Positions 34,111-41,356 of a DNA stretch of 64,000 nt are shown here, piece by piece. The translations under genes and the position numbers were made by a program. Source of the stretch: an uncultured Chloroflexia bacterium. Lineage in GTDB: Bacteria > Chloroflexota > Limnocylindria > Limnocylindrales > CSP1-4. The notes under the pieces are model-generated. The model saw nothing but the letters and a program-made list of their open reading frames with translations, was not told the origin of the DNA and did no database searches. Numbering within the stretch: the stretch's first letter is position 1; each line of letters opens with the position of its first letter. The stretch is from assembly GCA_963813535.1 (NCBI GenBank), contig CAWEZH010000003.1:928001-992000 (forward strand), given 5' to 3'.

Positions 34111-34923
34111 TCAGCCCGCCCCGGCCGCGCCGCGGCCGAGATATGCCTCGATGACGCGCGGGTCGGCGCGCACTTCGGCCGGCGACCCCTCGGCGATCTT
34201 CTCGCCGTGATCCAGCACGGTGACGCGGTCGCTGATCCCCATCACGACCTTCATGTCGTGCTCGATGAGGAGGACCGTGAGGCTCAGGCGCGTCCGCAGC
34301 TCGCGGACGAAGTCGGTGAGCTTGCGGGTCTCCTCGGGGTTCATGCCGGCCGTGGGTTCGTCGAGGAGGAGCAGCTTCGGCTCCGTGGCCAGCGCACGTG
34401 CGATCTCGAGACGACGCTGGTCGCCGTACGGGAGGTTTCGCGCCAGGGTCGTGGCCCGGCTCTTCAGCCCGACGAGATCGAGGAGCTCCATCGCCCGATC
34501 GTGCGCCTCCTGCTCCTCGCGGATGATCGAGGGCGGACGGATGATCGCCCCGAACCAGCGGCCCTTGAGGCGATGGTGGAGCCCGACGAGCACGTTGTCC
34601 TCGGCCGACATGTTGCCGAACAGCCGGATGTTCTGGAACGTCCGGGCGATGCCGACGCGGACGACTTCGTGCGGCTTCAGCCCGGTGATCTCGCCCCCGT
34701 CGAAGGTGATGCTGCCCTCCGTCGGGATGTACAGCCCGGTGATCATGTTGAAGAACGTCGTCTTGCCGGCGCCGTTCGGCCCGATGAGGCTGACGATCGA
34801 GCCGCGCGGGATGGTGAAGTCGATGTCGTGGACGGCGACGAGGCCGCCGAACCGCTTCGTGCAGCCCTTGGCGACGAGGAGGTCCCCGGCCGGCTGGACC
34901 GCCTCCGCGGCCACGGCCGTCAT
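34111..34923 (-). CDS. livG: Branched-chain amino acid ABC transporter ATPase (appears fused to livM in this sequence)
   Basis: KRFGGL, GPNGAGKT, RTFQNIRLF, LPYGDQR, LDEPTAG and IEHDM; in-frame ATG at 34923. Confidence 0.9.
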   Translation of the reverse strand: MTAVAAEAVQPAGDLLVAKGCTKRFGGLVAVHDIDFTIPRGSIVSLIGPNGAGKTTFFNMITGLYIPTEGSITFDGGEITGLKPHEVVRVGIARTFQNIRLFGNMSAEDNVLVGLHHRLKGRWFGAIIRPPSIIREEQEAHDRAMELLDLVGLKSRATTLARNLPYGDQRRLEIARALATEPKLLLLDEPTAGMNPEETRKLTDFVRELRTRLSLTVLLIEHDMKVVMGISDRVTVLDHGEKIAEGSPAEVRADPRVIEAYLGRGAAGAG

Positions 34924-36297
34924 GCCGGTCGCCCGGGATCGGACGTGGTTCCCGAGGCGTCGGACGCCGCCGCATGTGGCGTCGGACGGTGGGGCGTTCG
35001 GGTCGGGCAGGGGCGCTTCCTCGAGCTCGATCACCTCGAGCTCCTCGAGGGCCGCGAGCTCGTCCCCACCCGCTCCCGTCACCTCGGCGGAGATCCCGAC
35101 GCCGTGCATCTCGGCCTTGGCCGCCTCGTCGGGGAACAGACCCTCCGGGCGCTTGATCATCATGATCACGAGCATCAGGCCGAAGATCAGGTAGTTGTAC
35201 GTGGTCAGCTTGAAGTCGCGCAGCAGCTCGATGCCGGTCTGGTTGCCGATCGACTGGATCGGGGCATTGAGGATCGTGTCACCCAGCCACGGCAGGAGCG
35301 TCCGGTCGAGGATCATCACGGCGAACGCCCCGATGACCACGCCTCGCAGCGAGCCGATGCCGCCCAGGATGATGATGATCACGACGAGGATCGAGACGTT
35401 GTAGTTGAACGTCTCGGCGAAGATCGCCGTGTTGTAGGCGCCGGTGAACGCGCCGGCGAACCCCGAGAAGCTGGCACCCAGCGAGAACGCGAGCAGCTTC
35501 GTCGTGACCGTGTTGATGCCCATCGCTGCCGCGGCAGTCTCGTCCTCCCGGATGGCCATCCACGCGCGGCCGAGCTTCGAGTCGCGGAGCCGCCTGCAGA
35601 TGAAGAACGTGATGGTCAGCAACAGCAGCACGAGATACCACGACGCGATCGCATTCTGATTCGAGAACACGAGCTGTGGTCCCCATGGCCCGGGTATCGG
35701 GATGATCGGCGGGTCGATCGGGTTGATACCGACGTTGCCGCCGGTCAGGTTCGCGTTCGGGCCGACCAGGACGGCGCCGCCGAGGAAGGCCGGCAGGATG
35801 ATCGTGATGTCGCCCAGGTTGCGGAAGACCAGGCGCACGATCTCGCCGAAACCGAGCGTGACGATGGCCAGGTAGTCGCCACGGAGCTTGAGCGTCGGGG
35901 CGCCGAGCATGACCCCGAAGACCGCCGCGGCGGCCACCGCGATCCAGATGACGATCCACCAGCTGATATGGACCCCGAAGTGGGGCGAGGCGAGGAACGC
36001 GGTCGTGTACGCCCCGATGGCGTAGAAGGCGACGTAGCCGAGGTCGAGCAGACCGGCGAAGCCCATGACGATGTTGAGTCCGAGGGCCAGGATCGCGAAC
36101 GTCGCGCAGAAGATCAGGACCGCTGTGCCGGGCCACGGGACGAATGGCGCGGCCGACTGGAGGAAGCGGTAGATCAGCGGATACGTCAGGGCGACGACCC
36201 CGATGATGACCAGGATGACGAGCTGACGGCGACGAGGGTCCAGCCCGGACAGCGGGTTGGGGATCAACGCGCGCGGAGCGCGGACGGCTTCGGTCAT
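34920..36297 (-). CDS. livM: Branched-chain amino acid ABC transporter permease
   Basis: GLNIVMGFAGLLDLGY, LRGDYLAIVTLGFGEI, AIREDE and RPEGL. Removing one base at ~34975 gives a stop at 34920 overlapping the livG ATG (1378 = 1377+1). Confidence 0.9.
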
Positions 36298-38938: not shown

Positions 38939-39403
38939 GTGGAATACCTGGTCCGAGCCGCCCGCATCACCGACATCGATCGACTCGTCGCCTTGAGCGA
39001 CGCCGAGATGCGTGGCGGTCCTGAGGCGAGCCCGCTCGATGCCGCCGACCTGCTTCGTCAGCTGGTGTACTTGCCGCAGGCGAGTATCTTCGTGGCCGAG
39101 ACCCAGCGGCATGTCGTGGGTGGGGCCGTCCTGGCCCTCCGCCCGTCGGTCCGTGCCGGCGGTTTCGTGGGTACCATCGATCTGCTGGTCGTCGACCCCG
39201 ACCACGATGCCGATCGGGTCGCCGACGCCCTCATCGAAGAGGTCGTCAGGTCGGCCAGCAACAAGGGCTGCACGCTCGTCGAAGTGGCCCGCCCGGACGA
39301 TCAGGCGTCCCTCGGCCGCTGGGCGGCACTGGGGTTCACGCCGGCCGGTCCGCGCATCCAACGAACCGTGGCCGCGGTGGGAACCACCTCGCGTCGCATC
39401 TGA
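38939..39403 (+). CDS. GNAT-family acetyltransferase-like protein
   Basis: VRAARITD, IDLLVVDP and ALGF; the acetyl-CoA loop is atypical. Confidence 0.75.
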   Translation: MEYLVRAARITDIDRLVALSDAEMRGGPEASPLDAADLLRQLVYLPQASIFVAETQRHVVGGAVLALRPSVRAGGFVGTIDLLVVDPDHDADRVADALIEEVVRSASNKGCTLVEVARPDDQASLGRWAALGFTPAGPRIQRTVAAVGTTSRRI

Positions 39404-39472
39404 TCATCGGCCCGCCGAGCAGCGAGAACGCGCCGGCAGGGCGCCAACACACATCATCCAAGGAGTAACAGT

Positions 39473-41356
39473 TTGGGCAAGAACGTCGCCGTCTTCGTAG
39501 ACGTGGCGAACATCTTCTATGCGGCGAAGGCCGCGGGCGTGGACATCGATTACGTCACGCTCCTCAAATCGGCAGGCGCCGGGCGGGATCTCGTCCGCGC
39601 GTATGCATATACGGGGCTCGACCCGGACAACGAGAACCAGCGGAACTTCCATGACTTCCTGCGCCGGCACGGCTACAAGGTGGTCAGCAAGGACATCCGC
39701 AAGTACGGCGACGGCAAGGTCAAGGCCAACCTCGACATCGAGCTCGTCGTCGACATGATGAAGACCGCTCGGAACCTGGACATCGCGATCGTGGTGTCCG
39801 GTGACGGCGACTTCGCACCGGCGATCCGCGCCGTACAGGAGATGGGCGTCCGCTGCGAGGTCATCAGCTTCCGCGGCAACACCAGCTCCGACCTCATCGA
39901 GGTCGCCGACCTCTTCACCGATATCACGCAGCTCGCCCGAGTGGAGAAGGGGACTCGCTCGGGTCGTCGAGTCGCGGACGACGACGCGGACCTGTCGATG
40001 ACCGAGGTCCCCGACAAGCAGACCGAAGGAACGGGCGTCGGTCGCGGGACGCGCGGCGGTCGCGGTCGCGGTCGCGGACGCAGCGGCGAGGCCGAGCCGG
40101 TCGCGGCATCGACGTCAGGGTCCGGCCGCGGGCGCCGCGGTGGCGGCACCTCCACGAACGGGTCCGCCGCCGGCGCCACGGCGATGCCGGGCGAGCGCCT
40201 TCGCGGACGGTCCGGACGTTCCGGCAGCCTCTCGGAGGCCGATCTCGCGTCGGCCGAGGTCTTCACCCTCGACGACCTCGACGAGGCCGTCGGCGGCGAG
40301 GGCACCGACGCCGGTGAGGCGGCCGATGGAGCCGAGGGTCGCGACGAGGCCGGCCGGCGCCGCCGACGGCGCGGAGGCCGCGGCCGCGGCCGTGGCCGCG
40401 GACGCGACGACGTGCCCGCAGCAGGCGAGGCGATCGTCGAGCCCATCGCGGCCGACGAGGAGGAGGACGAGGAGGACGCTCCGATCGAGGCGCCGCGCCC
40501 GCCGCGCAGCACCCCGTTCGGTTCCGTCTGGGACTCGCAGCTGGGCACGACGGCCGCGCCGTCGCCGCTCACGCCTCCGAGCGACGACGAGGACTTCGAT
40601 GAGCCGGAGATCCCGGAATACCTGATCGCCGAGCAGCGCCGGGGCCGTGCCCCCAGCGGTGGCGGTCGCGGCGGAGCCCGCGGTGGGCCCCGCGGCGGTC
40701 GAGCCGCCTATCAGTCGGCGATCGAGCGTGAGCGCTACGGGCGCGGTGGGAGTGGCGGCATCAACCGCTATCCCGACGTGAGCGGGCGGACCGGCGGACG
40801 TGACCAGCGCAGCGGTGGTCGAGGCTACGACCGTCCGAACGAGCGGCCACGCGAAGCGGGTCGCCCGTCCGGTTCCACCGAGCCGTGGAGCGAGGTCCCG
40901 CCGGAGCTCGAGGCGATGCTCCGGGCACAGGTCGGCCAGAAGCCGCCGACCCGTCCGACAGAGGTCGTGCCCGGACGGTCCCTCGAGGAGGAGGTCGCCG
41001 CCCCGGTCGCCGCGGATGGAGCCGAGGTAGCGGAGACGGCGCCGAAGCGCCGCTCGACGCGATCCTCCAGCACGACATCGCGAGCGACGAAGGCCGCCGG
41101 CGAGTCGGCCGAGGCCGGGACGCCCAAGCGACGCAGCACGCGTAAGCCGACCGCCGCCACTGAGGCGACCGGCGATGCCGCGGCCCCCGAAGCGGCAGCA
41201 CCCAAGCGACGGACGACCCGCAAGTCGACAGCCGCTGCGGCGACCGCCGACGGAGCCGCGACCGACGACACCAGCGCAGCGGCCGACGCCGATGCGGGTG
41301 CCGAGGCTGCGCCCAAGCGACGGACGACCCGCAAGTCGACCAAGACCACGTCCTGA
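39473..41356 (+). CDS. NYN (LabA/DUF88, PIN-like) domain protein with long disordered C-terminal region
   Basis: VFVDVANIF, KANLDIELVVD, VSGDGDFAP and LIEVADLF; then RGG, acidic and PKRR-repeat tracts. TTG start after AAGGAG. Confidence 0.9.
   Translation: MGKNVAVFVDVANIFYAAKAAGVDIDYVTLLKSAGAGRDLVRAYAYTGLDPDNENQRNFHDFLRRHGYKVVSKDIRKYGDGKVKANLDIELVVDMMKTARNLDIAIVVSGDGDFAPAIRAVQEMGVRCEVISFRGNTSSDLIEVADLFTDITQLARVEKGTRSGRRVADDDADLSMTEVPDKQTEGTGVGRGTRGGRGRGRGRSGEAEPVAASTSGSGRGRRGGGTSTNGSAAGATAMPGERLRGRSGRSGSLSEADLASAEVFTLDDLDEAVGGEGTDAGEAADGAEGRDEAGRRRRRRGGRGRGRGRGRDDVPAAGEAIVEPIAADEEEDEEDAPIEAPRPPRSTPFGSVWDSQLGTTAAPSPLTPPSDDEDFDEPEIPEYLIAEQRRGRAPSGGGRGGARGGPRGGRAAYQSAIERERYGRGGSGGINRYPDVSGRTGGRDQRSGGRGYDRPNERPREAGRPSGSTEPWSEVPPELEAMLRAQVGQKPPTRPTEVVPGRSLEEEVAAPVAADGAEVAETAPKRRSTRSSSTTSRATKAAGESAEAGTPKRRSTRKPTAATEATGDAAAPEAAAPKRRTTRKSTAAAATADGAATDDTSAAADADAGAEAAPKRRTTRKSTKTTS
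41042..41340 (+). repeat. Four PKRR(S/T)TR(K/S) peptide repeats in the NYN tail
   Basis: Copies at ~41042, ~41123, 41201 and 41312. The last two share an identical 29-mer, CCCAAGCGACGGACGACCCGCAAGTCGAC. Confidence 0.85.

Follow-up and report, generated by a model that had tools for sequence, protein, structure and literature searches.

Our understanding of how RNA decay is organised in bacteria without RNase E is partial, and for bacterial NYN/LabA proteins virtually no biochemical function has been established. Both subjects meet in a gene on a 64,000-nucleotide stretch of DNA from an uncultured Chloroflexia bacterium (assembly GCA_963813535.1, contig CAWEZH010000003.1, positions 928,001 to 992,000 of the forward strand; the whole stretch is referred to as the window). 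An initial annotation made from the sequence had described the product as a NYN ribonuclease carrying an RNase E-like disordered scaffold, and had proposed it as a possible organiser of an alternative degradosome or condensate. The question raised by this locus is what such a protein does and what its long tail contributes. All genomes sampled from three Chloroflexota families of soil and fresh water carried the gene, even those of 1 Mb. The reading favoured here, at a rough probability of 0.45, is that of a housekeeping RNA endonuclease whose tail would bind RNA and dock partner proteins, and overall the earlier interpretation is partly supported. No description of a bacterial NYN protein bearing a disordered scaffold turned up in the literature searched, subscription journals lying outside its coverage.

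The NYN domain and its acidic residues

Residues 4-151 were matched to Pfam family PF01936 over model positions 1-144 of 145 (E 3.5e-36; 125.3 bits against a cut-off of 24.2), which confirmed the open reading frame (ORF) at 39473-41356 as an intact NYN domain followed by a long low-complexity tail of 467 aa. All strings quoted in the initial annotation were present in the translation, both those of the domain (VDVAN, NLDIEL, SGDGDF and ADLF) and those of the tail (RGGRGRGRGR, RRRRRRGGRGRGRGRGR, GGRGGARGGPRGGR, DEEEDEED, DDEDFDE, four hydrophobic islands and four PKRR(S/T)TR repeats). At E ≤ 0.01 PF01936 was the sole Pfam family in the whole protein, the tail being without any domain, and no NCBIfam model matched. 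The frame is coding, because GC content at third codon positions (GC3) is highest in this frame in both the NYN domain (0.88) and the tail (0.83).

By sequence, a single solved relative was identified, VPA0982 (PDB 2qip; E 1.2e-16), in which the acidic residues of the NYN domain are identical in the HMMER alignment. When 36 sequences covering families f1, f2 and f3 of the class were aligned (f1 includes the window's genome), D10, D88, E90, D111, D113 and D146 were invariant. The available text of a 2017 survey of PIN-like domains gives four conserved acidic residues predicted to hold a metal ion (PMC5499597); D10, D88, D111 and D113, with E90 and D146 in addition, are candidates for this set by sequence comparison.

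An AlphaFold2 (AF2) model was built on the same 36-sequence alignment, with a predicted local distance difference test score (pLDDT) of about 70 over the NYN region (residues 1-160). A fold search with this model returned 2qip (Z 14.4, 130 residues aligned, root-mean-square deviation 2.6) and the NYN domain of MARF1 (Z 12.4 and 11.8; identity about 15%), with unrelated Rossmann-like folds at Z ≤ 9.7, well under the NYN matches. The domain is accordingly modelled as a PIN-like alpha/beta fold of the NYN type. Lower rows of the search held a mycobacterial Pol I 5' nuclease (Z 8.7), ExoIX (Z 7.8) and Rae1/YacP (Z 7.7); the YacP/Rae1 profile (PF05991) gave no match at E ≤ 0.01, the similarity to that protein being one of fold.

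A non-catalytic regulator resembling cyanobacterial LabA, in which the NYN fold would merely bind a ligand or RNA and the tail would make regulatory contacts, is improbable. LabA-type proteins, which share the Pfam/COG group of the window protein, have a regulatory role without demonstrated nuclease activity in the part of the survey available, but the acidic active-site positions are all invariant over f1-f3, as expected of a working enzyme, whereas COG1432 members vary, carrying from one to five of these residues (PMC5499597, same portion).

Composition, conservation and proposed action of the tail

The tail (residues 161-627) contains 76 Lys or Arg and 76 Asp or Glu residues, for a net charge of 0, with a charged fraction of 0.325 and 10.5% hydrophobic residues. 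Its charges are segregated 8.2 standard deviations above the mean of 2000 shuffles, none of which equalled it. In the AF2 model the tail has pLDDT below 50 except at helices 382-388, 411-422 and 477-487, and its highest-scored part is the island STEPWSEVPPELEAMLRAQV (pLDDT 63-68). The tail is thus predicted to be an intrinsically disordered, charge-segregated, net-neutral polyampholyte. The PKRR(S/T)TR repeats lie at residues 524-530, 551-558, 577-584 and 614-621. HU and H1-like DNA-binding tails are Lys/Ala/Pro-rich; the basic C-terminal repeats here gave no profile match, and any resemblance to H1 or HU tails is one of composition only.

In a whole-protein search, 8000 candidates were scored and 2368 proteins reached E ≤ 0.001. 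The best 120 of these 2368 were 579-844 aa in length, all carried PF01936, and their source names were Chloroflexota and 'Candidatus Limnocylindrales'. When the window protein was aligned with 119 of these 120 (120 sequences, 560-700 aa), identity was at least 90% in the islands and in the NYN domain but mostly below 50% in the linkers, where it fell as low as 14-29%, as had been predicted for conserved islands set in varying linkers. Within island APRPPRSTPFGSVWDSQLGT, FGSVWDSQ.G was invariant in 13 sequences.

Across the class the islands are less uniform. Orthologues from f2 carry shortened versions (IETLTLDDL, VPEYL and SDVSPDVAALLQSQL) and have AKKPAAKKPA in place of the PKRR repeats, and those from f3 have motifs of their own (EIGWQEFDDLSQ, REYTFEEADAATLAELGL and PKPRRSRSRK repeats), so that the islands differ between f1 and f3. 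The only tail elements invariant across f1-f3 were P180, K182, R191 and the Arg motif RRRRRRGGRGR. This motif was found in 36/36 aligned sequences and in 50/52 orthologue-bearing loci, where the DNA encoding it takes 44 distinct forms and each of its 11 positions uses 3-5 synonymous codons; the two loci without it were L034, which has RHRRRRRGGRGR there, and L036, in which a contig end cuts it. Because the motif is invariant despite 44 DNA versions, selection acts on its residues and not on composition or DNA.

These data bear directly on the possibility that the tail is functionless low-complexity sequence grown by slippage in a GC-rich genome. The linkers are free in length and sequence and assembly frameshifts are frequent in the tail region, as such an origin would allow, but this explanation is already contradicted because the islands are conserved (the 120 sequences above) and the 11-residue Arg motif is invariant; retention of the tail in 1-Mb genomes and the GC3 of the frame also stand against it, and we regard it as very improbable.

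Short relatives were treated separately. These were 12 proteins of 233-331 aa with NYN domains 92-99% identical, 9 of which enter out-of-frame Arg/Pro/Trp-rich text at varied points, as assembly indels would give, while 3 (P0275, P0278 and P0283) run in frame into the tail and then meet an early stop. Naturally tail-less close relatives were accordingly rejected, and the tail was present in every close relative examined, as the scaffold proposal had anticipated. Public assemblies (P0272-P0362), with contigs of up to about 1.8 Mb, had frequent frameshifts in the GC-rich Arg-Gly region, and frameshifted assemblies give truncated 'NYN domain' calls of 230-340 aa.

The favoured mode of action is as follows. 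This clade-specific housekeeping gene would encode a metal-dependent NYN (PIN-like) endonuclease, acting most likely on single-stranded RNA. The Arg-Gly blocks, RRRRRRGGRGR and the basic C-terminal repeats would provide multivalent, non-specific nucleic-acid binding; the interspersed acidic blocks would balance charge and allow self-association; and the short conserved islands, three of them as predicted helices, may be docking sites for protein partners. The tail would in this way link the nuclease domain, itself non-specific, to RNA and to further enzymes of RNA processing, like the C-terminal half of RNase E, possibly within a condensate or degradosome. RNA is the likelier substrate because of the known activities of the NYN family; the NYN domain of MARF1 is an endoribonuclease in the available text of PMC6294520. 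RNase J, RNase Y, PNPase and DEAD-box helicases, all encoded in the genome, are possible partners. A complex prediction for PNPase (residues 1-705) with the tail (residues 285-492) scored 0.00, which gives no verdict and is evidence neither way. An ESM Atlas language-model search with the tail returned unnamed clusters with a best score of 0.87, below the trust level, the nearest Pfam-bearing clusters being the RNase E tail pieces PF12300 (0.79) and PF12111 (0.76), at scores that often arise by chance. The 11-residue Arg motif and the helical islands offer handles for study with recombinant proteins.

Phyletic range, gene neighbourhood and ribonuclease inventory

The orthologue was found in 40/41 related genomes, the sole miss (G005) being 83% complete; among the 40 are 16/16 genomes of 1.0-1.4 Mb from sister family f2. 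In an evenly sampled draw of 31 genomes from the class, all at least 91% complete, it was present in 10/10 genomes of f1 (the window's genome included), 1/1 of f2 and 10/10 of f3, that is in 21/21 genomes of f1-f3 combined, and in 0/9 of f52 and 0/1 of f53. Together with conserved synteny with holB, these counts are signs of a core job in the clade. A wider draw of 201 phylum genomes included two flagged as unpublished (G184 and G212), on which no conclusion depends; some NYN homologue (E ≤ 1e-10) was found in 83/201, with identity of at most 50% outside the class, and no close NYN homologue was found in the other 118/201.

The tail motifs were not found elsewhere in the same genome by six-frame search. 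A profile of the islands (residues 336-490, 13 orthologues) was run against 1.84 billion representatives and returned 204 proteins, 91 of them at E ≤ 1e-30. Pfam scans of 12 of these hits, 10 of which were odd in length or placement, found only NYN, holB-type and acylphosphatase domains, and each odd hit checked comes from the same locus, as a fragment or a read-through. The tail module is therefore private to the NYN protein, with no other carrier among the 1.84 billion representatives, and the profile gave 0 hits at E ≤ 10 in the PDB.

Disordered extensions with Arg runs are nevertheless not unique to the window protein: they recur on NYN domains of the phylum, where two or more architectures occur. 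Five long NYN ORFs were fetched from other Chloroflexota families and Pfam was run on four of them. Four of the five (L126, L127, L128 and L130) place a C-terminal NYN domain after a 550-730-aa low-complexity region with Arg runs such as SRRRRRRRSKS, TRRRRRRRRGSS and RRRGRRGRRGGRGRRRG; the fifth, L129, combines NYN with TPR repeats. The former four are 700-910 aa in length and have common motifs such as RPARRYRFDRP, and their Arg run followed by small residues (e.g. TRRRRRRRRGSS) resembles the cyanobacterial motif RRRRRRSSA discussed below.

The coordinates of the gene, its parts and its neighbours are collected in Table 1. The linkage to holB reported in the initial annotation holds over all three families. 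Gene order within f1 is conserved as a periplasmic binding protein gene (- strand), GNAT, the NYN gene, holB and acylphosphatase; in f2 the NYN gene is followed by holB, also conserved; and in f3 the order is GNAT, the NYN gene, about 0.8 kb, holB and acylphosphatase. In the window holB starts 11 nt past the stop codon of the NYN gene, and the small GNAT gene lies 70 nt upstream of the NYN gene. Portions of the tail and the junction between the NYN gene and holB are covered by contigs from runs labelled metatranscriptomic, the RNA label being a guess and many of the contigs coming from relatives. Promoter and terminator scans gave nothing useful. Elsewhere in the window, positions 34111-36297 (- strand) hold a 728-aa ORF that seemingly fuses an ABC permease for branched-chain amino acids with an ATPase (a membrane part, then Walker-A GPNGAGKTT), adjoining a second permease and a periplasmic binding protein.

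Table 1. Positions in the window of the NYN-tail gene, its parts and flanking genes, with the basis of each assignment
Feature	Positions	Strand	Basis
Whole gene, NYN domain and predicted disordered tail, 627 aa, TTG start	39473..41356	+	ORF list, GC3, full-length orthologues
Shine-Dalgarno-like AAGGAG, TTG start 7 nt downstream	39460..39465	+	read from sequence
NYN/LabA nuclease domain, residues 4-151	39482..39925	+	Pfam PF01936, 2qip sequence and fold match
Conserved post-domain segment RSGRRVADDDADLSMTEVPDKQTEG, residues 162-186; P180 and K182 invariant class-wide	39956..40030	+	alignments
First Arg-Gly block GRGTRGGRGRGRGRS, residues 190-204; partial conservation in own family	40040..40084	+	translation, alignment
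Acidic-hydrophobic island SEADLASAEVFTLDDL, residues 254-269; sister-family counterpart IETLTLDDL	40232..40279	+	alignments
Arg motif GRRRRRRGGRGRGRGRGR, residues 294-311; RRRRRRGGRGR core	40352..40405	+	alignment, codon comparison
Acidic block DEEEDEED, residues 328-335, inside variable linker	40454..40477	+	alignment, composition
Island APRPPRSTPFGSVWDSQLGT, residues 340-359, own-family-specific; at least 90% identity in 120 sequences	40490..40549	+	alignment
Island DDEDFDEPEIPEYLIAEQRR, residues 371-390, predicted short helix 382-388; VPEYL retained in sister family	40583..40642	+	alignments, AF2 model
Arg-Gly block and islands AYQSAIERERYG, GGINRYPDVSGRT, residues 399-440, predicted helix 411-422	40667..40792	+	alignments, AF2 model
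Island STEPWSEVPPELEAMLRAQV, residues 468-487, predicted helix 477-487; sister-family counterpart SDVSPDVAALLQSQL	40874..40933	+	alignments, AF2 model
Basic C-terminal region, residues 524-621: four PKRR(S/T)TR(K) repeats with Ala/Thr/acidic spacers	41042..41335	+	translation, alignments
GNAT acetyltransferase gene, upstream, kept in f1 and f3	38939..39403	+	profile matches, loci comparison
holB (DNA polymerase III delta'), downstream, PF13177 and TIGR00678	41368..42615	+	profile matches

The neighbourhood suggests a second kind of role, that of a DNA- or nucleoid-associated nuclease of the replisome, in which flaps, primers or other DNA or RNA-DNA structures would serve as substrates of the NYN domain and the H1-like basic tail would bind the chromosome. 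This alternative is unlikely, and is still live because of holB and the basic tail: the gene is directly upstream of holB in f1 and f2 and within about 0.8 kb of it in f3, the f2 repeats (AKKPAAKKPA) have the Lys/Ala/Pro-rich composition of HU and H1-like DNA-binding tails, and PIN-like folds include flap endonucleases, among them the Pol I 5' nuclease and ExoIX of the fold search. The top fold and sequence matches are, however, NYN proteins, whose known activities are on RNA; 5'-3' exonuclease domains were present in 31/31 genomes of the class draw, mostly in two copies, so that no replication nuclease is missing; and holB neighbours are often unrelated housekeeping genes, such as an ArsR-type regulator and PSP1 in sister families.

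In those families, f52 and f53 (loci L119-L125), holB is flanked by the ArsR-type gene and by a PSP1 (RicT/YaaT-like) gene, PSP1 lying downstream as in Bacillus. PSP1 was present in 10/10 genomes of f52 and f53 versus 0/21 of f1-f3. A phylum-wide anticorrelation of PSP1 and NYN was rejected, since both occur in f5, f8, f20, f23 and f27; neither occurs in f6, f16, f17, f22, f25 and f26. RicA/RicF (PF06133) was found in 1/31 class genomes, a genome outside f52 and f53.

A third alternative concerns stable RNA. A dedicated stable-RNA or ribosome-biogenesis nuclease, with a tail that, like nucleolar glycine/arginine-rich (GAR)/acidic proteins, would hold the enzyme on rRNA precursors or ribosomes and not serve mRNA decay, is on the unlikely side while deserving serious weight. 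Bacterial NYN genes are tied by neighbourhood to tRNA and rRNA processing in the available text of the 2017 survey (PMC5499597), presence in 16/16 genomes of 1.0-1.4 Mb is expected of a translation-related core gene, the composition of the tail suits binding of structured RNA, and the related fold of Rae1/YacP is in the fold list. Against this, no rRNA, tRNA or ribosomal-protein gene adjoins the NYN gene in the loci examined, an Rfam scan of the window found no family, and RNase P RNA (RF00010; 179 bits versus a gathering score of 100) and RNase III are both present in the genome, so that no known maturation step is visibly vacant. A protein-only RNase P (PRORP/HARP-like role) was rejected, RNase P RNA being present, and so was a substitute for a lost RNase III or flap nuclease, both being found in 31/31 class genomes.

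The ribonuclease inventory was compared with the earlier suggestion that these genomes lack RNase E. The genome (93% complete, 3 contigs) has no RNase E/G domain (PF10150), so this part stood, but the absence does not discriminate: RNase E/G was over the cut-off in 1/201 phylum genomes, 118 of which have no close NYN homologue, and its absence is a phylum trait. The genome encodes RNase J, RNase Y, PNPase, DEAD-box helicases and RNase III. Its PNPase (G000:C2:569912-572545, outside the window; also L062 and L075-L095) carries an insert of about 200 aa between the first RNase PH domain and the remainder, which reads like a DEDDh/DnaQ-type 3'-5' exonuclease and is present in 21/21 genomes of f1-f3 versus 0/10 of f52 and f53. 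No second occurrence of the insert was found in the phylum draw, where generic DEDDh domains only were seen. RNase J lies 2 kb downstream of PNPase. The loss of PSP1 and the PNPase insert are single-clade coincidences, each resting on one split of the tree, and are leads, not tests.

Several points weigh against a housekeeping RNA endonuclease with an RNA-binding, partner-docking tail. NYN/COG1432 is classed as 'function unknown' in the available text of the 2017 survey, with zero members tested there as a nuclease (PMC5499597). The sole conserved neighbour with a known role is the replication gene holB, and for the basic C-terminal repeats (AKKPAAKK in f2) either nucleic acid, DNA or RNA, would be a ligand. 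There is no demonstrated gap for the protein to fill because RNase Y, RNase J and PNPase are present, and RNase III and 5'-3' exonuclease domains occur in the class genomes regardless of the NYN gene. Lack of RNase E is compatible with the scaffold idea and is not specific to genomes with the NYN gene. Partners, if any, may also differ between f1 and f3, because the islands are unlike. An alternative degradosome is accordingly one among several possible RNA roles, given the RNase Y/J/PNPase set.

Comparison with known systems

Single-domain bacterial NYN/LabA proteins (VPA0982, 2qip; LabA) have the same Pfam family, fold and conserved acidic residues as the window protein. They differ in having no tail, at about 165-190 aa versus 627 aa here, and their function is given as unknown or regulatory in the survey text available (PMC5499597). 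In eukaryotic NYN endoribonucleases of RNA granules (MARF1, N4BP1 and DNE1) a NYN fold is likewise combined with extensions that place the nuclease in mRNA-decay assemblies, as far as the sources available describe them; the extensions there are folded RNA-binding modules (RRM, LOTUS/OST-HTH, KH), whereas here the extension is predicted to be disordered and Pfam finds NYN only.

Bacillus RNase Y with RicT/YaaT (PSP1) is likewise an RNA-decay system of organisms without RNase E. It has no sequence relation to the NYN-tail protein, RNase Y itself is present in the genome, and the RicT-like PSP1 gene adjoins holB in f52 and f53, where the NYN gene was not found. RicT of Bacillus forms complexes with RNase Y in the available text of PMC10470536.

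Cyanobacterial RNase E binds PNPase through a strictly conserved nonapeptide, RRRRRRSSA, and in Anabaena R6 without SSA bound PNPase poorly (PMC3964918, available portion). The Arg motif of the window protein is similar in that small residues come after a run of exactly six Arg and conservation is strict, within a variable non-catalytic tail of an endonuclease; it differs in having GGRGRGR and not SSA after the Arg run and in standing mid-tail and not near the C-terminus. Caulobacter RNase E has a C-terminal GWW PNPase-binding motif, EKPRRGWWRR, described in the same portion; f3 orthologues (L037-L047) end in GIWGRFRSAR or GIWQRFRSGR, which recalls it.

A broader proposal may be framed from these parallels, and we consider it distinctly unlikely as a whole. 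Chloroflexota without RNase E would use NYN nucleases with long disordered extensions as organisers of an RNA-decay assembly or condensate; in clade f1-f3, RRRRRRGGRGR would recruit the insert-bearing PNPase as RRRRRRSSA does, family-specific islands would recruit further enzymes, and beside holB the gene would have replaced a lost PSP1/RicT-type factor in position and perhaps also in function.

The favoured housekeeping RNA endonuclease is best compared with the C-terminal half of RNase E (degradosome and BR-bodies of E. coli and Caulobacter). The window protein is not an RNase E family member: its catalytic domain is NYN and not the S1/DNase-I-like RNase E/G domain, PF10150 being absent from a protein for which Pfam lists NYN alone; its tail has no similarity to any solved RNase E segment (the PDB search above); and no membrane-targeting helix was identified in it. 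The resemblance is in design only. BR-bodies depend on charge blocks, and both proteins have a long disordered region (predicted here) on an endonuclease, alternating Arg-rich and acidic blocks, and short conserved microdomains among variable linkers. If the tail does act as proposed, a disordered scaffold would clearly have evolved by convergence on an unrelated nuclease fold, and bacterial RNA-protein condensates could be approached from a new side.

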